Virus record (IMG/VR): IMGVR_UViG_2740892258_000018
Coordinates: 1-8,869 of that record
DNA length: 8,869 bases
Direction: 5' to 3' (one strand)
Source: a virus
Taxonomy: Duplodnaviria > Heunggongvirae > Uroviricota > Caudoviricetes
Both the position numbers and the translations under genes were made by a program. The notes beneath the pieces are model-generated. The model was not told where the DNA came from. It worked only from the letters and a program-made list of their open reading frames with translations, and searched no databases. Positions 1 through 8,869 of this stretch are shown in pieces. Numbering within the stretch: position 1 is the stretch's first letter; every line of letters starts with the position of its first letter.

Positions 1-1338
1 ATGACGGGGGCAGATAGTGAAGGCGGAGCTGAGGTGTATTCAGCCGCAACCACGCGTGACCAGGCCAGAATCGTGTTTGAAGACGCCAAAAATATGGTCA
101 GAAAAGCCCGGTCGACACTCGGGCGGTTGTTTGATTTCAACAAGCTGGCGATTTACCAGGAGCAGAGCGCATCAAAATTTGAACCGCTTTCCTCGGATGC
201 AAACAACCTGGACGGTCTGAACATCCACTGCGCCATTATTGATGAGCTGCATGCACATAAAACCCGCGACGTGTGGGACGTTCTGGAAACGGCAACCGGT
301 GCCCGTCTGCAGTCCCTGTTATTTGGTATCACCACGGCTGGCTTTAACAAGGAAGGGATTTGTTACGAGCAGCGTGATTACGCCATCAAGGTATTGCGAG
401 GCTATAACAGCGACGTGGAGGGCGCTGTAAAAGACGACTCTTACTTTGCGATCATTTACACGCTCGATGAGGGAGATGATCCGTTTGATGAAACGGTCTG
501 GCAGAAAGCGAATCCTGGCCTGGGCATCTGTAAACGCTGGGATGATCTGCGTCGTCTGGCGAAAAAAGCGAAGGAGCAGGTCTCTGCGCGGGTGAATTTT
601 TTTACCAAACACATGAATGTGTGGGTCACTGCCGAATCTGCCTGGATGGATATGATTAAGTGGGAGAAGTGCGAATACATTGCTCCACAACATGAGCTGA
701 AAACATATCCCATGTGGGTCGGCGTCGACCTTGCTCATAAGATTGATATCTGTGCGGCGGCAAAACTCTGGCGAACCGATAACGGACATGTTCATGCTGA
801 TTTTAAATTCTGGCTTCCGGAAGGACGGCTGGAACGATGCTCGCGGCAGCAGGCAGAACTTTACCGGAAGTGGGCGGAGATGGATAAGCTCATCCTGACG
901 GATGGTGATGTTATCGATCATGCTCAGATAAAAAGTGACTTACTGGAATGGATTGGCGGTGAAAACCTCAGGGAACTGGGATTTGACCCGTGGAGCGCAA
1001 TGCAGTTCAGTCTGGCACTGGCTGAAGAAGGGATACCGCTGGTGGAGGTTCCGCAGACGGTCCGCAATCTGTCAGAGGCCATGAAGGAAACGGAATCACT
1101 GGTTTATGCCGGGCGTTTCCATCACAGCAATCATCCGGTCATGAACTGGATGATGTCTAACGTTACTGTAAAACCGGACAAAAACGACAACATCTTCCCG
1201 AATAAATCCACGCCGGAAGCCAAAATCGACGGCCCTGTTGCGCTTTTTACAGCCATGAGCCGCTTTCTGGTAAATGGCGGGGGCGTGAATGACTTTCTGT
1301 CCACGCTTGATCCTGATGAGGACCTGTTAATTCTGTGA
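1..1338 (+). CDS. Phage terminase large subunit (HK97/Terminase_1-like), 5'-partial: window starts inside the gene
   Basis: 445-aa ORF running from window edge to TGA at 1336-1338. Contains an ATPase Walker-B-like segment (HCAIIDELH) followed by a TTAG motif and a C-terminal nuclease-type region. Walker A is absent, so the N-terminus lies upstream of the window; the ATG at position 1 is probably coincidental. Family assigned by recognition of the translated sequence, no search run. Confidence 0.85.
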   Translation: MTGADSEGGAEVYSAATTRDQARIVFEDAKNMVRKARSTLGRLFDFNKLAIYQEQSASKFEPLSSDANNLDGLNIHCAIIDELHAHKTRDVWDVLETATGARLQSLLFGITTAGFNKEGICYEQRDYAIKVLRGYNSDVEGAVKDDSYFAIIYTLDEGDDPFDETVWQKANPGLGICKRWDDLRRLAKKAKEQVSARVNFFTKHMNVWVTAESAWMDMIKWEKCEYIAPQHELKTYPMWVGVDLAHKIDICAAAKLWRTDNGHVHADFKFWLPEGRLERCSRQQAELYRKWAEMDKLILTDGDVIDHAQIKSDLLEWIGGENLRELGFDPWSAMQFSLALAEEGIPLVEVPQTVRNLSEAMKETESLVYAGRFHHSNHPVMNWMMSNVTVKPDKNDNIFPNKSTPEAKIDGPVALFTAMSRFLVNGGGVNDFLSTLDPDEDLLIL

Positions 1339-1355
1339 AACAGCTTATTACTGAT

Positions 1356-1496
1356 ATGACCGGGCTGATCGGTTTCGGTCTGCTCACTGCTGGCGTTTAT
1401 CTGTATGCAGGTCTGCCAGCGTCTCTGATGCTGTCTGGCTGTTTGTTGCTGCTTTATGCACTGGTGGTGTCCATGAGGAGAAAACATGCTTCTTGA
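1356..1496 (+). CDS. Hypothetical small membrane protein (46 aa, two predicted TM helices) filling the terminase-portal gap
   Basis: ORF ATG 1356 to TGA 1494-1496, not in the supplied track (under 60 aa). Translation MTGLIGFGLLTAGVYLYAGLPASLMLSGCLLLLYALVVSMRRKHAS is strongly hydrophobic with a basic C-terminus. Its stop overlaps the portal start (1486). An in-frame GTG at 1335 overlapping the terminase stop would give 53 aa. No convincing Shine-Dalgarno, so coding status is uncertain. Confidence 0.3.
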   Translation: MTGLIGFGLLTAGVYLYAGLPASLMLSGCLLLLYALVVSMRRKHAS

Positions 1497-2712
1497 TGCT
1501 CTGTTTCGCAGTGAGCCTCTGGAAAATCCCTCGGTTCCGGTAACCGGAGAGGCCGCTGAGACGGATAATATTTTTGCCCGGGATGTGTATGTCAGTCCGG
1601 AAACGTCCATGAGGCTGGCTGCTGTCTATGCCTGTATTTATGTTATTTCATCCAGTGTGGCTCAGATGCCCCTGCATGTGATGCGAAAAACGAATGAGCA
1701 TGTTCAGCCGGCACGCGATCACCCGTTGTTCTGGCTCGTTCATGATGAACCGAATGCCTGGCAGACCAGCTATAAGTGGCGGGAACTGAAGCAGCGTCAT
1801 GTGCTGGGGTGGGGCAATGGTTATACGTGGGTGAAACGTAATCGTCGTGGCGAGGTTACCAGTCTTGAATGCTGTATGCCATGGGAAACCACGTTACTTA
1901 ACACTGGAGGGCGTCATACCTACGGTGTGTATAACGAAGAGGGTGCATTTGCGGTAAGTCCGGACGACATGATCCATATCAGGGCGCTGGGAAACAATCA
2001 GAAAATGGGACTGAGTCCGATCATGCAGCATGCTGAAACCATTGGTATGGGAATGAGTGGTCAGCAGTATACCAGTGCTTTTTTTAACGGTAATGCCCGT
2101 CCTGCCGGGATTATTTCTGTGAAAAATGAACTGAACGAACAGAGTTGGAGCAGGCTCAAGAATATGTGGCAGCGGGCGGTGACAGCGCTTCGCAGTCAGG
2201 AAAATAAAACCATGCTGCTGCCTGCGCAACTGGATTACCGTGCCCTGACAGTTTCTCCGGTGGATGCTCAGATCATTGATATGACCAAGCTGAACCGGTC
2301 GATGATTGCCGGAATTTTTAATGTCCCGGCGCACATGATTAATGACCTGGAAAAAGCCACATTTTCGAATATTACACAGCAGGCGATTCAGTTTGTTCGC
2401 TACACGATGATGCCCTGGGTTGCGAACTGGGAGCAGGAGCTTAACCGTCGCCTGTTTACCCGCACAGAACGGGCTGCCGGGTATTACGTTCGTTTCAACC
2501 TTACAGGATTGCTCCGCGGGACTCCACAGGAGCGTGCGCAGTTTTATCACTTTGCCATTACAGATGGCTGGATGAGCCGGAATGAAGCGAGGGCATTTGA
2601 GGACATGAACCCGGTTGATGGTCTGGATGAAATGCTGGTCAGCGTAAATGCAGCAAATCCGTTGAATGATTTTAAAGATACGAAAGGCAAAGAGGAAAAG
2701 AACGATGAATGA
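1486..2712 (+). CDS. Phage portal protein, HK97 family
   Basis: 408-aa ORF with strong RBS (AGGAGA 1475-1480, 5-nt spacer). Size and sequence character fit HK97-type portals, including a C-terminal acidic tail. Sits directly after the terminase, the canonical order. Confidence 0.85.
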   Translation: MLLDALFRSEPLENPSVPVTGEAAETDNIFARDVYVSPETSMRLAAVYACIYVISSSVAQMPLHVMRKTNEHVQPARDHPLFWLVHDEPNAWQTSYKWRELKQRHVLGWGNGYTWVKRNRRGEVTSLECCMPWETTLLNTGGRHTYGVYNEEGAFAVSPDDMIHIRALGNNQKMGLSPIMQHAETIGMGMSGQQYTSAFFNGNARPAGIISVKNELNEQSWSRLKNMWQRAVTALRSQENKTMLLPAQLDYRALTVSPVDAQIIDMTKLNRSMIAGIFNVPAHMINDLEKATFSNITQQAIQFVRYTMMPWVANWEQELNRRLFTRTERAAGYYVRFNLTGLLRGTPQERAQFYHFAITDGWMSRNEARAFEDMNPVDGLDEMLVSVNAANPLNDFKDTKGKEEKNDE

Positions 2713-3304
2713 CCGTGAAACGCGCTGTTACAGCGGGGAAGTGCGGGCAGAACAATATGATAATGCCCCGACTCATATTTTGGGGTATGGCTCGGTATTT
2801 AACAGTCGTTCAGAACCTCTGTGGGGATTTCGTGAAATCATCAAGCCGGGGGCTTTTGACGACGTGCTGAATGATGATGTACGTGGATTGTTTAATCATG
2901 ATCCTAATTTCATTCTCGGACGAAGTTCTGCCGGCACGTTGTCATTATCAGTGGATGAACGTGGTTTGCGTTACGACATTGTTGCACCGGATACGCCGAC
3001 GATTTGTGACCTGGTGCTGTCACCAATGTTGCGTGGTGACATTAATCAGTCCTCGTTCGCGTTTCGCGTCGCTCGTGATGGAGAGAGCTGGTATGAAGAC
3101 GACGAGGGGATTGTTATCCGGGAAATCACGCGCATTTCTCGTCTGTATGACGTCAGCCCGGTGACATATCCGGCCTATCAGGACGCAGACTCTGGTGTCC
3201 GCTCAATGAAAGCCTGGCAGGAAGCGCGGGCGAGTGGTGCGCTGAAGAAAGCTGTTAACGAACGAATGGCGCGTGAGCGTCTTTTGACCCTTCTTAATGC
3301 ATAA
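2705..3304 (+). CDS. Prohead maturation protease, HK97 family (peptidase S78-like)
   Basis: Track ORF starts at 2666, but the ATG at 2705 has a GAGGAA SD 8 nt upstream and overlaps the portal stop (ATGAATGA), so 2705 is the preferred start. About 199 aa; contains the conserved His-containing LFNHD motif and a downstream Ser-rich segment (GDINQSSFAFR) typical of HK97 gp4-type proteases. Position between portal and capsid is canonical. Confidence 0.8.
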   Translation: MNDRETRCYSGEVRAEQYDNAPTHILGYGSVFNSRSEPLWGFREIIKPGAFDDVLNDDVRGLFNHDPNFILGRSSAGTLSLSVDERGLRYDIVAPDTPTICDLVLSPMLRGDINQSSFAFRVARDGESWYEDDEGIVIREITRISRLYDVSPVTYPAYQDADSGVRSMKAWQEARASGALKKAVNERMARERLLTLLNA

Positions 3305-3318
3305 GGATACTACTGACG

Positions 3319-4536
3319 ATGAAACTTCATGAGATGAAGCAAAAACGAAACACCATTGCAAAGGATATGCGTGCACTGCATGAAAAAATTGGTGATAACG
3401 CATGGACTGATGAGCAACGGGCAGAGTGGAACAGGGCGAAAGCTGAGCTGGATGCGCTGGATGAGCAAATCGCCCGTGAAGAAGAGTTGCGCCGTCAGGA
3501 TCAGGCATATGTGGATGAGTCCGGGCCGGAAGAGCGCCAGAATAATGAGGCGGAGAACGGGAAAAAGGCGGTGGAAGAGAAGCGCGCTGCGGCATTTAAC
3601 CGTTTTCTGCGTGCCGGATTTGCAGAACTGAATGCTGAAGAGCGTAATCTGATGCGTGAACTGCGGGCTCAGAGTGTAACAACGGATTCTCAGGGCGGAT
3701 ATACGGTGCCCACGCAGATGCGTAACAAAATCATTGACACCATGAAGGCTTATGGCGGGATTGCCAGTGTTGCGCAACTTCTGACCACATCAACCGGGCA
3801 GGATATCACCTGGTCAACGTCTGATGGCACGACTGAAGAGGGCGAACTGCTGGCGGAAAATACAGCCGCAACGGAACAGGATGTGACGTTCGGGACCGCT
3901 ATTCTGGGGGCTAAAAAGCTGTCATCAAAAATAATTCGTGTGTCCAATGAGCTGCTCCAGGACAGTGGGGTGGATATTGAATCTTATCTGGCAAACCGTA
4001 TTGCCCAGCGTATTGGTCGTGGAGAGGCGAAATATCTGGTTCAGGGGACCGGAACGGGATCACCGTTACAGCCAAAAGGGCTGGCAGCGTCGGTGACGGG
4101 AATCATCCAGACTGCAGCCTCTGCCGCTTTCACCTGGAAAGAAATGAATGCCCTGAAACATGCCATTGATCCGGCATATCGTGGTGGGCCGAAATACCGC
4201 TGGGCATTCAATGATGCCACATTGCAGACTATTGAAGAGATGGAGGATGGACAGAAACGCCCGTTATGGCTGCCGGATATTGCAGGCGGTACGCCGGCTA
4301 CTGTGCTGGGGATCCCTTATGTTATTGATCAGGCTATTGACGGGATTGGTACCGGAAAAAAATTCATTTTCCTGGGGGATTTCAACCGCTTTATCATTCG
4401 CCGCGTTACTTATATGGAACTGAAACGTCTGGTTGAGCGTTATGCTGAGTTTGATCAGGTGGCATTTCTGGCTTTCCATCGTTTTGACTGTGTGCTGGAA
4501 GATGTGGCAGCCATCAAGGCGCTCACTGGCAAATAA
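3319..4536 (+). CDS. Major capsid protein, HK97 family, with N-terminal delta (scaffolding) domain
   Basis: 405-aa ORF with AAGGAT SD about 10 nt upstream. The N-terminal ~110 aa are charged and coiled-coil-like (EQRAEWNRAKAELDALDEQIAREEELRRQ...), as in HK97-type capsids that carry their scaffold in cis. The rest reads as an HK97-fold capsid body. Followed by an intrinsic terminator. Confidence 0.85.
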   Translation: MKLHEMKQKRNTIAKDMRALHEKIGDNAWTDEQRAEWNRAKAELDALDEQIAREEELRRQDQAYVDESGPEERQNNEAENGKKAVEEKRAAAFNRFLRAGFAELNAEERNLMRELRAQSVTTDSQGGYTVPTQMRNKIIDTMKAYGGIASVAQLLTTSTGQDITWSTSDGTTEEGELLAENTAATEQDVTFGTAILGAKKLSSKIIRVSNELLQDSGVDIESYLANRIAQRIGRGEAKYLVQGTGTGSPLQPKGLAASVTGIIQTAASAAFTWKEMNALKHAIDPAYRGGPKYRWAFNDATLQTIEEMEDGQKRPLWLPDIAGGTPATVLGIPYVIDQAIDGIGTGKKFIFLGDFNRFIIRRVTYMELKRLVERYAEFDQVAFLAFHRFDCVLEDVAAIKALTGK

Positions 4537-4556
4537 CCACTCGTTGTTCAGTTACA

Positions 4557-4580
4557 GACCGCGCCGACGCGGTTTTTTTA
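4557..4580 (+). terminator. Rho-independent terminator/attenuator downstream of the major capsid gene
   Basis: Sequence GACCGCGCCGACGCGGTTTTTTTA: stem ACCGCG (4558-4563) pairs with CGCGGT (4568-4573) around loop CCGA, followed by a run of 7 T (4573-4579). Lies 21 nt after the capsid stop. Confidence 0.6.
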
Positions 4581-4602
4581 TGCCCGCACAGTGTTGCGGG
4601 CA
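4581..4602 (+). promoter_or_regulatory. Perfect 8-bp inverted repeat (TGCCCGCA-N6-TGCGGGCA) overlapping the SD of the connector gene
   Basis: TGCCCGCA at 4581-4588 and its exact reverse complement TGCGGGCA at 4595-4602, spacer CAGTGT. The 3' arm overlaps the GGAG SD (4603-4606) of the gene starting at 4613. No T-tract follows, so it is more likely an operator or translational-control hairpin than a terminator. Confidence 0.35.
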
Positions 4603-4612
4603 GGAGTTTCTG

Positions 4613-4930
4613 ATGGCAGCAATAGTGGAAAAACTCAGGGCGCAGTGCCGTATTGATACAGATGATGCAACTGATGATGAGTTACTGATGCTGTATTTCC
4701 GGGCTGCCTGCCGCAAGGCAGAAAATTTTATCAACCGTAAGCTTTATGAGGAGACGGTGCCGGAAGGTGATCCTGAAGGGGTGCTTATAGCTGATGATGT
4801 TTTGCTGGCGCTCATGTTGCTGGTCGGGCACTGGTACGAAAACCGGGAAAATTCCTCAGATGTCAGCAAGGCACCAGTCCCGTTTGGTTTTTCTTCTCTG
4901 CTGGAGCCTTATCGTTTTATTCCTTTGTAG
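4613..4930 (+). CDS. Head-tail connector protein (gp6-like, Phage_connect_1 family)
   Basis: Track ORF 4433-4930 overlaps the capsid gene and spans the terminator, so the ATG at 4613 (GGAG SD 4603-4606, 6-nt spacer) is the likely start. About 105 aa; the N-terminal pattern LRAQCRIDTDDATDDELLMLYFRAA is characteristic of gp6-like connectors. Confidence 0.75.
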   Translation: MAAIVEKLRAQCRIDTDDATDDELLMLYFRAACRKAENFINRKLYEETVPEGDPEGVLIADDVLLALMLLVGHWYENRENSSDVSKAPVPFGFSSLLEPYRFIPL

Positions 4931-4938
4931 GAGGAGAC

Positions 4939-5277
4939 ATGCAGGCGGGCAGATTACGTGATCGCGTAATTATTCTGAATGTCACCACCGCCCGCTCTCC
5001 GTCAGGGCATCCGGTGGAGACGGTGACGGAGGGAGCTACCGTATGGGCAGAAGTTAAGGGTATCAGCGGGAGGGAGATAATCTCAGGCGGAGCAGAAACC
5101 GCTCAGGCTACGGTCAGAGTCTGGATGAGATTCCGGCGCGATGTGACAGCGACTTCACGTCTGAAAGTGCTGACCGGTGCATTTAAAGGGGCCATTCTGG
5201 GTATAGAAGGTCCACCAATACCGGATGCACGCGCTACCCGGCTTGAAATACTCTGCAGCCTGAAGGGGAATGTGTGA
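4939..5277 (+). CDS. Head closure / head-tail adaptor protein (SPP1 gp16-like, Phage_H_T_join family)
   Basis: 112-aa ORF with strong SD AGGAGGAG (4929-4936). Pattern RDRVIILNVTTARSPSGHPVETVTEGATVWAEVKGISGRE...RVWMRFRRDV fits head-closure proteins. Canonical position after the connector. Confidence 0.75.
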   Translation: MQAGRLRDRVIILNVTTARSPSGHPVETVTEGATVWAEVKGISGREIISGGAETAQATVRVWMRFRRDVTATSRLKVLTGAFKGAILGIEGPPIPDARATRLEILCSLKGNV

Positions 5278-5723
5278 TGGATTTCAGTCTTGATTTTTCC
5301 GGCCTGGCGGATATTGCACGGGATTTGGAGACGCTCAGCAGGGCAGAAAACAATAAGGTTCTGCGCGATGCCACCCGTGCCGGTGCTGAAGTTATGCGGG
5401 ATGCAGTTGTTGAACGTGCGCCGGAGCGAACCGGGAAACTGAAGAAAAATGTGGTTGTTCTCACTCAGCGTTCAAAGCGTCGGGGGGAAATTATCTCGGG
5501 TGTCCACATTCGCGGACGGAACCTGCGAACCGGAAACAGTGATAACAGCATGAAAGCCAGCGATCCCCGAAATGCATTTTACTGGCGCTTTGTGGAGCTG
5601 GGAACGATAAACATGCCCGCGCATCCATTCATTCGCCCGGCTTTCGATACGACAGAGGAACTGGCAGCACGGATTGCTATACAGCGAATGAATCAGGCTA
5701 TTGATGAGGTCTTAAGTAAATGA
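5277..5723 (+). CDS. HK97 gp10-family phage protein (neck/tail-attachment component)
   Basis: ATG at 5277 overlaps the upstream TGA (TGATG), indicating translational coupling. About 148 aa, with the ERAPERTGKLKKN segment matching the P..TG.L pattern of the gp10 family. Confidence 0.65.
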   Translation: MDFSLDFSGLADIARDLETLSRAENNKVLRDATRAGAEVMRDAVVERAPERTGKLKKNVVVLTQRSKRRGEIISGVHIRGRNLRTGNSDNSMKASDPRNAFYWRFVELGTINMPAHPFIRPAFDTTEELAARIAIQRMNQAIDEVLSK

Positions 5724-6055
5724 GAGAGGCCACACTGTATTCCCTGTTGTCTCAGCTGGCCGGAGGACAGGTTTATCCTTATGTGGTCCCACTGACGGAG
5801 GGAAAGCCTGCGGTATCTCCGCCGTGGCTGGTGTTTTCTGTGGTGTCTGACACGGCATCTGATGTGCTTGATGGGCAGGCTGAATCCAGAATTACCGTGC
5901 AGATCGATGTCTGGGCGACAGTACCTGATGACGCAGATAATATTCGTGAGCAGGCGCTTGATGCGGTAAGAAAACTGGCTGCCGCTACGGTCCGATGCGT
6001 GAAAACCCGGGCTTGCAGCGACCGTTCCGGTCGCGCCGCCCCTGTCGCGCCGTGA
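5720..6055 (+). CDS. DUF3168-like protein (gp11-like tail completion/neck protein); C-terminus possibly altered
   Basis: ATGA overlap with the upstream gene at 5720-5723. N-terminal two thirds (LYSLLSQLAGGQVYPYVVPLTEG...WLVFSVVSD...ITVQIDVWA) fit DUF3168 proteins. The last ~20 aa (RCVKTRACSDRSGRAAPVAP) are Cys/Arg/Pro-rich and read like translated GC-rich non-coding DNA. Confidence 0.5.
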   Translation: MREATLYSLLSQLAGGQVYPYVVPLTEGKPAVSPPWLVFSVVSDTASDVLDGQAESRITVQIDVWATVPDDADNIREQALDAVRKLAAATVRCVKTRACSDRSGRAAPVAP

Positions 6056-6439
6056 CCTGCGCTCCCTGCACACCTGACGGTGTGTGAGGAAACTGCGCCT
6101 GATGGCGCAGCAGTCCTCCCTCCTGCCGCCCCCCCTGCGGCCTGTTTCCCCGCTGTGGACTTTCCGGGGGGCAGACGTAACCCCCTCCCGTTCCATCTGT
6201 CCAGGGTGAGATGCACCGGCCACAAAATTTTTAGCCATGAACCCGGCAAAAAATTTTGCGTCCGCCCCCGGACAGCTGCCCCGTGAGGCGGTAAACGGGC
6301 CCCCATCGGAAAGGTCCACTGCGGGGAGAAACCCCTGTGAAGTGGACGGCAGGAGGAGCTTTCGCTCCTCTGAAGGGGCACATGAACGTCCCGTCGCCGG
6401 TATCCGGTTTATCTCACATCTTTCAGTCAGGAGGTTCTT
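6056..6439 (+). promoter_or_regulatory. GC-rich structured non-coding region upstream of ssb; candidate single-stranded-DNA promoter (Frpo/ssi-like)
   Basis: 384 bp with no credible ORF. Nested imperfect inverted repeats: CACACC/GGTGTG (6070-6084); CTGCGCC/GGCGCAG (6093-6110); long-range arms CCCGCTGTGGACTTTCCGGGGGG (6148-6170) versus CCCCCATCGGAAAGGTCCACTGCGGGG (6300-6326); inner AT-rich pair CACAAAATTTTT (6219-6230) versus AAAAAATTTTG (6248-6258). Ends at the ssb SD AGGAGG (6429-6434). Plasmid leading regions are known to carry ~300-nt hairpin-forming ssDNA promoters upstream of ssb, psiB and ardA. Confidence 0.45.
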
Positions 6440-6967
6440 ATGAGTGCACGTGGTATCAACAAGGTCATCCTCGTCGGGCGTCTGGGCAATGATCCGGAAG
6501 TCCGTTACATCCCCAACGGGGGCGCAGTGGCAAACCTGCAGGTGGCCACATCAGAAAGCTGGCGTGACAAACAGACGGGGGAGATGCGGGAGCAGACGGA
6601 ATGGCACCGCGTGGTGCTGTTCGGCAAGCTCGCGGAAGTGGCAGGTGAATATCTGCGCAAGGGTGCGCAGGTCTACATCGAAGGTCAGCTTCGCACCCGT
6701 AGCTGGGAAGATAACGGTATCACCCGTTACGTCACTGAAATTCTTGTTAAGACCACGGGCACCGTGCAGATGCTGGGACGTGCACCACAGCAGAACGCTC
6801 AGGCGCAACCGAAGCCTCAGCAGAATGGGCAGCCACAGAGTGCTGACGCGACGAAAAAAGGTGGCGCGAAAACGAAAGGCCGTGGACGTAAGGCCGCGCA
6901 GCCAGAGCCTCAGCCGCAACCGCCGGAGGGGGAGGATTACGGGTTTTCAGACGACATCCCGTTCTGA
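6440..6967 (+). CDS. ssb: Single-stranded DNA-binding protein, conjugative-plasmid type
   Basis: 175-aa ORF with AGGAGG SD 5 nt upstream. N-terminal OB-fold ([99 protein letters not shown]), a Gln/Pro-rich linker and the acidic tip DDIPF. The linker is [21 protein letters not shown] rather than the Gly/Gln-rich linker of chromosomal E. coli SSB, so it resembles F/IncI plasmid SSB more closely. Confidence 0.95.
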
Positions 6968-6987
6968 TCGGGCTGACTGTGACAACC

Positions 6988-7006
6988 GCCCCGCCCTGTG
7001 CGGGGC
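6988..7006 (+). other. GC-rich hairpin in the ssb - ParB-like intergenic region
   Basis: GCCCCGC (6988-6994), loop CCTGT, GCGGGGC (7000-7006). No T-tract follows, so it is more likely an mRNA-stabilising or processing hairpin than a terminator. Confidence 0.3.
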
Positions 7007-7024
7007 ATCACCGGAGATATGAGG

Positions 7025-8869
7025 ATGAGCGAATATTTCAGAATACTTCAGGGACTCTGCCCTGCTGGCGCAGACGGAGGAAGTGAGCGTGCCGCTGGCC
7101 TCGCTGATTAAATCACCGCTGAATGTGCGCACGGTGCCGTATTCTGCGGAGTCCGTCAGCGAACTGGCGGAGTCCATTAAGGGCGTCGGACTGCTGCAGA
7201 ATCTGGTCGTGCATACCCTGCCTGGTGACCGTTACGCTGTCGCCGCAGGCGGTCGCCGACTGGCAGCACTCAACATGCTGGCAGAGCGCAACATCCTTCC
7301 GGCTGACTGGCCTGTACGCGTGAAGGTCATTCCGCAGGAGCTGGCGACTGCCGCATCGATGACCGAGAACGGTCAGCGTCGGGATATGCACCCTGCCGAA
7401 CAGATTGCCGGATTCCGCGCAATGGCGCAGGAAGGCAAAACGCCTGCACAAATCGGTGATTTGCTGGGCTATTCACCCCGCCACGTTCAGCGAATGCTTG
7501 TCAGGCGCTGGCGCTGGAGAACGACACCGCGCGTCAGGTGCAGGTGTTTGAAGCCGCCTGCCAGTCGGGATGGGGCGGTAAACCGGAAGTACAGACCATT
7601 CGTCGTCTGGTGACCGAAAGTGAAGTGGCGGTGGCGGGGAACAGTAAATTCCGCTTCGTGGGGGCTGATGCCTTCTCGCCAGACGAACTGCGCACCGATT
7701 TGTTCAGCGATGACGGGGACGGTTATGTCGACCGCGTGGCGCTCGATGCCGCCCTGCTGGAAAAACTCCAGGCTGTCGCAGAGTTCCTTCGGGAAGCCGA
7801 AGGCTGGGAATGGTGCGCCGGACGCATGGAGCCTGTCGGTGAGTGCCGTGAAGATGCCCGGGCATACCGCAACCTGCCGGAGCCGGAAGCGGTGCTGACG
7901 GAGGCGGAAGACGAACGTCTGAACGAACTGATGGCTCGTTACGACTCGCTGGAAAACCAGTGTGAGGAATCTGACCTGCTGGCAGCAGAAATGAAGCTGA
8001 TTGACTGCATGGCGAAGGTCAGGGCGTGGACGCCGGAGATGCGTGCCGGAAGTGGCGTGGTGGTGTCCTGGCGTTACGGTAATGTGTGTATCCAGCGTGG
8101 TGTGCAGTTGCGCAGTGAGGATGATGTGGCTGACGACGCTGACCGCACGGAACAGGGGCTGGAGAGCGCGTCAGTGGAGGAAATTAGTCTGCCGTTGCTG
8201 ACTAAATTGACCTCAGAGCGCACGCTGGCAGTCCAGGCAGCACTGATGCAGCAACCGGACAAATCCCTGGCACTGCTGGCATGGACGCTCTGCCTGAATG
8301 TGTTTGACAGCAAAGCGCATAGTAGTCCCGCCAGAATTCGCCTGGAATGTGAGCATTATGCGCTGACCAGCGATGCACCGTCAGGGAAGGAAGGTGCCGC
8401 ATTCATGGCGCTGATGGCAGAACACTCTCGTTTTGCTGCCCTGCTGCCGGAAGGATGGGAACGGGATATGACGACGTTCCTGTCACTTAGCCAGGAGGTG
8501 CTGTTATCCCTGCTCAGTTTCTGTACCGCGTGCAGTCTTAACGGTGTCCAGACCCGCGAGTGTGGTCACACGTCACGCAGTCCGCTGGACTCGCTGGAAA
8601 CCGCCATCGGCTTTCACATGCGCGACTGGTGGCAGCCGACAAAAGCAAACTTCTTCGGACACCTGAAAAAGCCGCAGATTATCGCAGCCCTGAATGAGGC
8701 CGGACTGTCCGGTGCCGCACGGGACGCGGAGAAAATGAAGAAAGGCGATGCGGCTGAACATGCAGAGTTCCATATGAAAGACAACCGCTGGGTGCCTGGC
8801 TGGATGTGTGCACCACGTCCACAGACGGATGCCACTGAACACACCGCTAACCTGGCTGATGCCGCCTGA
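7025..8869 (+). pseudogene. ParB-N-domain (ParB/sulfiredoxin-like) protein gene of plasmid leading-region type, interrupted by two frame changes
   Basis: ATG 7025 (GGAGA SD 7012-7016) opens MSEYFR... but stops at TAA 7109-7111. A second frame is open from 7029 to 7613 and carries the ParB-N-like core (GVGLLQNLVVH...AAGGRRLAALNML...RDMHPAEQIAGFRAMAQEGKTPAQIGDLLGYSPRHVQRML). From about 7502 the first frame resumes (QALALENDTARQVQVFEAACQSGWGG...) and runs ~455 codons to TGA 8867-8869. The three segments together make one ~600-aa protein. Confidence 0.7.
7031..7050 (+). repeat. 10-bp tandem duplication (GAATATTTCA / GAATACTTCA) in the first codons of the ParB-like gene
   Basis: Direct adjacent copies at 7031-7040 and 7041-7050, one mismatch. 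Removing one copy fuses ATG 7025 in frame to the ParB-N domain, giving MSEYFRDSALLAQTEEVSVPLASLIK... Confidence 0.7.

Follow-up and report, generated by a model that had tools for sequence, protein, structure and literature searches.

Virions of the HK97 type (T=7) contain about 415 capsid and 12 connector subunits. How a phage obtains hundreds of the first and a dozen of the second from one antiterminated transcript is usually explained loosely, by 'weak terminators' or by 'ribosome-binding site (RBS) strength'. Hairpins between cistrons are known to stabilise the upstream message, as do the malE–malF repetitive extragenic palindromic (REP) elements and the puf hairpins, and engineered tunable intergenic regions consist of two hairpins flanking an RNase E site. 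RNA polymerase modified by Q passes intrinsic terminators. Lambdoid late operons are switched on through Q antitermination (PMC2629481). Inefficient terminators balance gene expression in T7 and in Pseudomonas phages (PMC9163698), and hairpins lying directly 5′ of a Shine–Dalgarno sequence (SD) form structured standby sites that set the rate of translation initiation (Espah Borujeni et al. 2014, PMC3936740). Here we describe the junction between the major capsid and head-tail connector genes in an 8,869-nucleotide stretch of viral DNA (Caudoviricetes; positions 1 to 8,869 of IMG/VR record IMGVR_UViG_2740892258_000018), which as a whole is called the window. At this junction a short terminator hairpin (H1) and its U tract are followed by a second hairpin (H2), which lies flush against the SD of the connector gene.

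Comparison with related loci argues that H2 is a genuine, selected hairpin of the + strand transcript that is tied to the connector initiation region. Our tentative reading of its role, to which we give a probability of about 0.4, is that H2, by filling the ribosome standby site, lowers translation of the connector gene. The junction is a compact and testable case, in which a doubtful attenuator stands beside a clade-specific covarying hairpin of fixed geometry and variable height.

Two hairpins at the capsid–connector junction

A sequence-only reading of the window had described, after the capsid gene, an intrinsic terminator and then a perfect 8-bp inverted repeat with a 6-nt spacer, and its coordinates proved exact to the base. 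An inverted-repeat search recovers H1 and H2 at the positions read from the sequence (Table 1), with the arms of H2 100% complementary around the 6-nt spacer. The palindrome had also been said to overlap the RBS of the connector gene; it adjoins the SD but does not overlap it, sharing at most A4602. The gap between the two genes is 76 nt, and a single A (A4580) separates the T7 run from H2.

Terminator prediction and RNA folding, proposed as checks in the same reading, both bear it out. H1 is ranked first in a terminator scan of the window (8 pairs including G-T, 5 GC, 4-nt loop), and both hairpins are found in the minimum free energy (MFE) and centroid structures returned by RNAfold for 4537–4630, a segment with a z-score of -5.3 relative to 200 dinucleotide shuffles. 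H1 folds with -11.2 kcal/mol in the window; in relatives its energy lies between -5.6 and -10.3 kcal/mol (mostly -7.5 to -9). As an isolated hairpin, H2 has an energy of -17.7 kcal/mol in the window and of -12.8 to -24.6 kcal/mol across variants. The connector SD of the window is about 0.5 unpaired in the predicted ensemble.

Over the window as a whole, terminator-like sites are not enriched (9 found versus 8.1 expected), and perfect 8-bp inverted repeats with short spacers also occur elsewhere, for example within a gene at 3018–3041. By our own estimate about one perfect 8-bp palindrome is expected by chance per 8.9 kb; by itself, the palindrome is near chance and not beyond it. What marks H2 as a real feature is chiefly that it is conserved and covaries, together with its GC content and its place between two genes.

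Several other assignments in this region were considered and rejected. The RNAfold MFE structure of 4537–4630 includes a long-range closing helix (4537–4551 with 4609–4627), but near-identical variants carry uncompensated changes on either strand (in loci L014, L026, L029 and L130), and the spacer is unrelated at 78% capsid identity. The ATG at 4580 is in frame in the window and would extend the connector by 11 codons, but in relatives it is ATG or GTG in another frame (in SfV, for example, at a 32-nt offset); it belongs to the outermost pair of H2 (A-U exchanged with G-C) and is no start codon. Neither hairpin is a candidate terminator for the minus strand, where its reverse complement is followed by A's or mixed sequence and no U run. 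At 8–14 bp, H2 is shorter than typical RNase III substrates and was not retained as an RNase III site. Replacing the 5′ arm of H2 by its complement in silico gave rise to new pairings, which made the differences in accessibility between wild type and mutant uninterpretable, and these were not relied on. An Rfam scan of 4400–4800 at a permissive E-value gave only noise, the best scores being 10–18 bits against gathering scores of 37–60 (nut/boxB, put, leaders and small RNAs).

Conservation and covariation of H2

The comparative set comprised about 175 loci, which gave 63 unique two-hairpin intergenic variants and 38 distinct H2 hairpins; a scan with the capsid protein was made on one genome per species and was unbiased. 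The region is 99.6–100% identical in several E. coli phages, among them Evi, PhiR49_2 and vB_EcoS isolates. Among Klebsiella and E. coli phages with about 68% DNA identity the layout is retained and the loops differ, and among IMG/VR relatives with about 78% capsid identity it is retained even with a different connector sequence type. The order H1, T run, H2, SD is found in every Enterobacterales relative (65–79% capsid protein identity), including those of Citrobacter, Kosakonia, Kluyvera, Buttiauxella, Serratia, Mixta, Rouxiella, Lonsdalea, Rosenbergiella, Morganella and Proteus. The intergenic region of this two-hairpin class is 76–97 nt long. Folded with its 3′ flank, H2 has an energy of -13.5 to -25.3 kcal/mol in all 63 unique variants, in which H1 is weaker (-5.6 to -11.2 kcal/mol).

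Covariation was scored on a MAFFT alignment of 55 sequences; these are related, and the counts that follow are not independent events and overstate the number of independent changes. Within the core of H2 (8 pairs), 93% of alignment cells are paired. Changes on both sides are seen in three of the eight core pairs: CG is exchanged with UA at columns 31–53 (6 sequences, with 2 UG intermediates) and at columns 33–51 (4 sequences, with 13 UG), while AU is exchanged with GC at the outermost pair, columns 26–58 (7 sequences, with 8 GU). When both helices are taken together, 94.5% of cells are paired in register compared with 28–54% in slid registers, and the covariation score of 0.140 exceeds that of all slid registers; shuffles score 0.103, and none of 500 reaches 0.140. 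RNAalifold recovers both helices unguided. In some relatives the upper stem of H2 has been swapped wholesale with pairing retained, as in Morganella (TGCCTGTGG/CCACAGGTA), Proteus (TGCCTGCGA/TCGCAGGTA) and Rouxiella (GCCCGTA/TACGGGC). On the opposite strand the U.G pairs would turn into mismatched A.C, and the selected object is therefore the + strand transcript.

These pairs also bear on the proposal in the sequence-only reading that the palindrome is a protein operator. H2 would then bind a protein that controls the head-completion genes, acting as a palindromic operator in DNA or as an RNA operator of the MS2 kind, as might be expected of a perfect palindrome that adjoins a ribosome-binding site and has a well conserved lower stem (GCCCG/CGGGC). 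Across the 38 variants, however, the arms are 8–14 bp long, the loop has 3–7 nt and the whole hairpin 20–33 nt, and the half-site separation, which an operator should keep fixed, shifts by up to about 11 bp. The loops are unrelated in sequence (CAGTGT, ATCT, TTCG, GTTCTG and others), and the alignment holds 32 G.U cells in the H2 helix, which pair only in + strand RNA and break the symmetry of duplex DNA. With no Rfam family matching either, an operator is highly improbable.

H2 starts 0–2 nt after the T run in 37 of the 38 distinct hairpins, the exception (5 nt) being a decayed copy in Symbiopectobacterium, and its last pair lies 10–12 nt before the ATG in 36 of the 38 (exactly 10 in most). 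A purine-rich SD follows directly in all relatives, starting 0–4 nt 3′ of the last pair in every variant and 0–2 nt in 49 of the 50 tabulated. Variation in the length of H2 is absorbed wholly by the loop and upper stem, and the base is fixed. The stretch from the capsid stop codon to H1, meanwhile, is free to change in length as in sequence, and compaction alone is therefore an unlikely cause of the tight fit at either flank of H2.

The only degraded H2 observed is on the chromosome of Symbiopectobacterium purcellii, which carries five copies of the head module (L205, L206, L207, L233 and L243) with identical intergenic regions. In these, GACCGC faces GCGGGC in H2, so that a pair is lost, and the T run is broken (TTTTTTC), as would be consistent with decaying prophages in a symbiont.

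The conserved block could instead reflect exchange between phages, H2 being a palindromic insertion or linker with no function of its own that is homogenised by recombination at a mosaic boundary between head and connector genes. The block GCGGTTTTTTT(A/G)TGCCCG is more conserved than the flanking genes and links one capsid family to two connector sequence types. Two mosaic recombinants in IMG/VR have junctions in or beside H2: in L053, H1 and H2 of the window type are joined to an SD and connector gene of the SfV type, and in L150 an H1 of the SfV type is joined to an H2, SD and connector gene of the window type. The crossovers fall in or beside the conserved block, which clearly serves as a point of exchange, and the intergenic block acts as a module boundary. 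Homogenisation alone, however, does not predict compensatory double substitutions, G.U intermediates on the + strand or whole-stem replacements that keep pairing, and the sole copy with a broken pair belongs to the Symbiopectobacterium genome with its five identical modules. We think it improbable that H2 is without function.

Parts of the junction recur in other contexts. The exact pattern GCGGTTTTTTTRTGCCCG was examined as a possible repeated mobile element in a scan of viral contigs and rejected as such: 47 of 120 matches are capsid–connector junctions and the rest lie in other contexts, many probably being ordinary terminators that share the 7 downstream bases by chance. In the intact phage, GCCCG...CGGGC occurs 7 times versus 1.1 expected, and only one copy, at the capsid–connector junction, has the H1-H2-SD layout. 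Among the matches of the contig scan, the same 18-mer, continued as GCGGTTTTTTTATGCCCGGAG...ATG, recurs without H2 in unrelated phages (L104, L155, L117, L183 and about 15 other loci). The open reading frames (ORFs) directly after it are very long and, judged by eye, tape-measure-like (L104, L155) or similar to the lambda J tip protein (L117, L183). This recurrence fits a terminator, U tract and then SD as a common form of late-operon junction. High-GC contigs (L123 3290–3370, also L088 and L186) contain a tandem resembling H1-T7-H2, GCCGCGGAAGCGG-T7-GTGCCCGCGTTATGGCGGGC, and after it, in non-coding sequence, a third hairpin, GGGAGCTCGAAAGAGCTGCC; no capsid gene precedes them.

H1 and Q antitermination

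In sequence form H1 has every feature of an intrinsic terminator, and its description as canonical in the sequence-only reading stands: the stem is GC-rich, the loop has 4 nt and the U tract lies directly 3′ of the stem. It is on the coding strand, begins 21 nt past the capsid stop and is kept in all Enterobacterales relatives. In these the stem is CCGC/GCGG with a closing tetraloop of the GNRA or UNCG type, and the T run has 6–8 T's in alignment columns that are invariant or nearly so.

From the terminator it had been proposed that capsid mRNA exceeds connector mRNA. PhiR49_2, which is intact and nearly identical, is a lambdoid phage that carries cI, cro, O, Q and S-R-Rz followed by terminase and lambda-like tail genes. 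A Q-like gene is also present in SfV, and in both phages the Q antiterminator gene lies upstream of the late genes. The late operon of PhiR49_2 (L269) has two more terminator-like hairpins (25960–26003 and 27400–27440), each adjoining the next SD. One, ACCCGCC-GCT-GGCGGGT followed by TTTTTTATTTTC and AGGAG, immediately precedes the gene for the abundant major tail protein; by the annotated start (25948) the hairpin would fall inside the coding sequence, and an ATG at about 26000 looks like the real start. The tape-measure junction has an H1-like hairpin (ACCGC-TTCG-GCGGT), T8, 5 nt and GGAG. H2 is absent at both junctions, where an open U-rich tract precedes the SD.

Because Q is present and a terminator precedes the gene for the most abundant tail protein, attenuation by H1 cannot be assumed in lytic growth, however well its form fits. 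The arrangement argues that the terminator hairpins of the late operon are not simple attenuators at that stage, and H1 may attenuate little during lytic growth in a phage that has Q.

H2 was also considered as a second or backup terminator, as the annotation of SfV would have it, and rejected. No U tract follows the stem, and purines always come first: after H2 the window has GGAGTTTCTG, other variants have GGAGATTTTT or AGGAGGTTTT, and the Klebsiella type has CAGGGAAAA.

Hairpins in more distant relatives and a possible role in mRNA decay

Outside the Enterobacterales the junction is simpler. Pasteurellaceae relatives (61–71% identity) have a single hairpin and U tract with the SD directly after, and no H2. 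Overall, 23 of 25 non-enterobacterial relatives have a post-capsid hairpin of -13 to -29 kcal/mol; in Marinobacter, Aeromonas, Cobetia, Pandoraea, Ancylobacter and Sphingopyxis it is a single strong GC hairpin, in many cases without a U tract. The post-capsid hairpin is therefore old and general, and H2 a clade-specific addition.

What is shared across the family is thus a stable hairpin and not a terminator, which favours the chief rival explanation, that H2 is mainly an element of mRNA decay or processing. With H1 (about -8 kcal/mol in most relatives) too weak a stop, H2 would act as a barrier to 3′-to-5′ exonucleases after endonucleolytic cleavage downstream, and would protect the capsid message on transcripts made by Q read-through. 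In a variant of this explanation RNase E would cut the single-stranded U7A linker, uncoupling the lifetimes of the capsid and connector mRNAs and leaving H2 near the new 5′ end. H2 has the structure of a stabiliser hairpin, that is, a stable stem-loop 3′ of the more abundant cistron, for which no U tract is required. The combination of a weak H1 and a strong H2 in the enterobacterial clade looks like a division of labour; with Q present, differences in mRNA level would have to arise by decay; the succession of hairpin, AU-rich linker and hairpin resembles malE–malF REP, puf and the engineered tunable intergenic regions; and GG|UUU at the border of H1 and the U tract fits the RNase E motif RN|WUU. 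On this explanation the flush position of H2 beside the SD is compaction only. A decay barrier, however, needs no flush fit with U tract and SD, yet 36 of the 38 H2 hairpins keep their distance to the ATG as the upstream spacer drifts; in the distant relatives that have only a stabiliser-like hairpin, the distance from hairpin to SD does vary. As the main function of H2 we consider decay less likely than damping of translation, though more likely than the other alternatives. A barrier to decay and a damper of translation could coexist, and decay is a rival only as the principal role.

H2 as a possible standby-site damper of connector translation

The capsid–connector junction is where protein demand drops most steeply, and it is the only junction with H2 when compared with the major-tail and tape-measure junctions. 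With Q genes in PhiR49_2 and SfV, a post-transcriptional layer of control is plausible here. In the reading that we favour, the junction is an RNA element of two parts in the late message of a lambdoid prophage. H1 and the U7 tract form a short-stem terminator that would end the transcripts of unmodified RNA polymerase, leaving a hairpin at the 3′ end of the capsid message. H2 would be present only in transcripts running past H1, as a stable, self-contained stem-loop set flush between U tract and SD. There it would fill the standby position directly 5′ of the SD and so restrain connector initiation, parting the SD from the U-rich tract that lies open beside it at other junctions of the operon. 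Together with any termination at H1, this would contribute to the large ratio of capsid to connector protein, and the next three small head-completion genes would follow the level of the connector through translational coupling. The three are packed or overlapping after the connector, with gaps of 8, -4 and -4 nt. The second layer of control suggested in the sequence-only reading is reasonable in the sense that H2 is a selected RNA hairpin tied to connector initiation; it does not hold in the form then proposed, a sequestering hairpin or an operator.

H2 has the geometry of a structured standby site: a single hairpin precedes the 16S-binding site, is mutually exclusive with it and is flanked by a distal and a proximal single strand. 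The published rule takes As = 15+P+D-H and a penalty of 0.038As^2-1.629As+17.359 (PMC3936740). For the window (D = 7, P = 0, H = 11, As = 11) it predicts a penalty of 4.0 kcal/mol, or about 6-fold lower initiation, and for 50 variants a median of 4.9 kcal/mol (range 1.5–9.0). Without H2, or at the major-tail junction with its open U-rich tract, no penalty is expected. Both the direction and the size of this effect on translation are inferred.

A number of points weigh against the standby-site reading. The estimated 6-fold effect assumes beta = 0.45, as in the RBS Calculator. The sign of the H2 effect is taken from a model of synthetic biology. The connector SD is strong (AGGAG, 6-nt spacer), which is unexpected for a down-tuned gene unless it offsets H2, and relatives outside the Enterobacterales do without H2 altogether. 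Pairing of the U tract with the SD, which we regard as a possible reinforcement predicted in some relatives and not as the core mechanism, is weak in the window (P = 0.12), and both partners are invariant for other reasons, which leaves no covariation to score. Lastly, the standby model is less accurate where the proximal site is 0 nt, as here (coaxial stacking; PMC3936740). A flush H2 could stack on the helix of SD and anti-SD and aid initiation, or could just keep the SD free.

The same pairing, given a larger part, would make H2 a sequestering element, as had also been suggested from the sequence. H2 extended by pairs between U tract and purine SD would mask the RBS, the U tract serving as anti-SD, and the connector would be repressed until the helix is opened. 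H2 does set U tract and SD in exact register in nearly all variants, and in SfV, the L066 type and the Klebsiella type it is extended by 5–7 U.G/U-A pairs onto the SD in the MFE structure and the ensemble. The pairing probability is 0.5–0.74 in about half of the variants (mean 0.35). In the window, however, the extension is broken by the A4580/G4603 mismatch, and it is made up largely of G.U pairs, which contribute only a few kcal/mol. Any purine SD beside any U run scores alike, and nothing shows selection for the pairing. The SD is never within the conserved stem and lies 3′ of it in all 63 unique variants; in the window, as noted above, about half of it is free. Sequestration is improbable as the main role of H2.

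In its strongest form the standby-site reading would make H2 a dedicated, flush-inserted damper that turns a U-rich enhancer of the S1 type into an occluded standby site or a weak anti-SD. It would then be a general and evolvable means of setting a capsid-to-connector ratio of about 35:1 in Q-antiterminated late operons, in which ratios of mRNA are beyond the reach of terminators, with its strength tuned by a stem height of 8–14 bp. We consider this extended claim unlikely. Were H2 either a damper or a decay barrier, it would offer a simple part for setting expression ratios in engineered phages and operons; were it to do nothing measurable, that would bear on the weight due to covariation in short GC hairpins.

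Organisation of the window

The head module of the window is of the HK97 type and lies on the + strand, with clear Pfam matches among the window proteins for all the genes listed in Table 1. Phage Evi, PhiR49_2 and others (99.6–99.8% DNA identity) have the capsid gene under the annotation of major capsid protein. The start of the connector gene is that of the Ad1 adapter protein annotated in phage Evi, and the gene starts agree.

Table 1. Features of the head module and of the capsid–connector junction in the window
Feature	Position	Strand	Basis or remark
Large terminase	1–1338	+	Pfam match
Portal	1486–2712	+	Pfam match
S78 prohead protease	2666–3304	+	Pfam match
Major capsid protein, 405 aa, HK97 fold, SfV type	3319–4536 (TAA)	+	PF05065 Phage_capsid, E 3.9e-70
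Spacer from capsid stop to terminator hairpin, 21 nt, variable	4537–4557	+	Free drift among relatives
H1, terminator stem-loop ACCGCG / CCGA / CGCGGT	4558–4573	+	Inverted-repeat search, terminator scan, RNAalifold
H1 arms and loop	ACCGCG 4558–4563, loop CCGA, CGCGGT 4568–4573	+	Sequence read
T7 run (U tract of terminator)	4573–4579	+	Sequence read; first T inside H1 stem
H2, perfect 8-bp inverted repeat TGCCCGCA / CAGTGT / TGCGGGCA	4581–4602	+	Inverted-repeat search, conservation
H2 arms and loop	TGCCCGCA 4581–4588, loop CAGTGT 4589–4594, TGCGGGCA 4595–4602	+	Sequence read
Shine–Dalgarno AGGAG of connector gene	4602–4606	+	Sequence read; 6-nt spacer (TTTCTG) to ATG
gp6-like head-tail connector/adaptor Ad1, 105 aa	4613–4930	+	PF05135, E 5.7e-14
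Head closure protein	4939–5277	+	Pfam match
gp10-like neck protein	5274–5723	+	Pfam match

The window is chimeric, with a junction at 5977–5980. Positions 1–5979 match, at 100% identity, a prophage in the chromosome of E. coli IHE3034, O18 and many others, while 5977–8869 match, also at 100%, the leading region of conjugative plasmids (ssb, a ParB-like gene, DUF905). No record among 20,395 from E. coli covers at least 80% of the window. Because the window is chimeric, the 'tail completion' ORF at 5720–6055 is a hybrid and the tail genes are missing; the junction may have arisen by misassembly, by artificial joining or through a rare rearrangement. The plasmid-derived part also has a long imperfect inverted repeat upstream of ssb, at 6217–6264 (20-nt arms, 85% complementary, 8-nt spacer, A/T-rich centre), which may be related to the single-strand promoters or initiation structures of plasmid leading regions.

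Comparison with known systems

H1 most resembles the internal terminators of phage late operons, such as T-phi after gene 10 of T7 and the putative ones annotated after HK97 gene 5 and SfV orf5, with which it shares a GC stem, a stable tetraloop and a U run directly after the capsid gene in the same orientation. It differs in belonging to a Q-dependent operon, in being unusually short (4–6 bp) and in having behind it another, stronger hairpin that lacks a U tract. In HK97 a putative terminator is annotated at 5192–5213, between genes 5 and 6. The sequence there (L267, NC_002167; 686–722) is GGGCGGG-GAAA-CCCGCCC-TTTT, set between GGAGG after the gene 5 stop and the gene 6 ATG. Because the terminator sits between the two, the only good SD is about 30 nt from the gene 6 start unless folding of the hairpin draws the two close. 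To judge from its sequence, HK97 has a different integration of a terminator with the connector initiation region.

In the SfV record (L268, NC_003444) the 'putative rho-independent terminator' at 5547–5584 spans H2, the SD and TTTT, extending into the beginning of orf6. The canonical H1 and T7 run (about 5526–5547) lie just upstream, outside the annotated feature, which is probably a mis-annotation. That the record marks H2, and not H1, as the terminator suggests that the tandem was not recognised there, and the comparison is of use for annotation.

Structured standby sites share with H2 a single hairpin, a short distal single strand (here U7) and almost no proximal strand before the SD. Those described were synthetic 5′ untranslated regions on monocistronic reporters (PMC3936740), whereas H2 is internal to a polycistronic phage mRNA and follows a terminator, and its effect is a model prediction. 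Intercistronic stabilisers are likewise stem-loops 3′ of the most-needed cistron, and the engineered kind has two hairpins with a U/A-rich single strand between them. By eye H2 does not look like the REP consensus; it falls far short of REP pairs in length and has no Rfam match, and its strict abutment on the SD is not a feature of stabilisers. Sequestering hairpins such as RNA thermometers and the MS2 replicase operator also adjoin the initiation region, but in H2 neither the SD nor the AUG is in the stem and there is no conserved loop or bulge for recognition by a protein.

A search of the literature found no description of a composite of weak terminator, flush covarying hairpin and SD, and no transcript data for these phages. 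Post-capsid terminators, standby sites and stabiliser hairpins are each known; the composite tandem arrangement is a detail for which we could not find a description. Set beside these systems, the element is a means of fine-tuning gene dosage of the ordinary sort and not a new principle.

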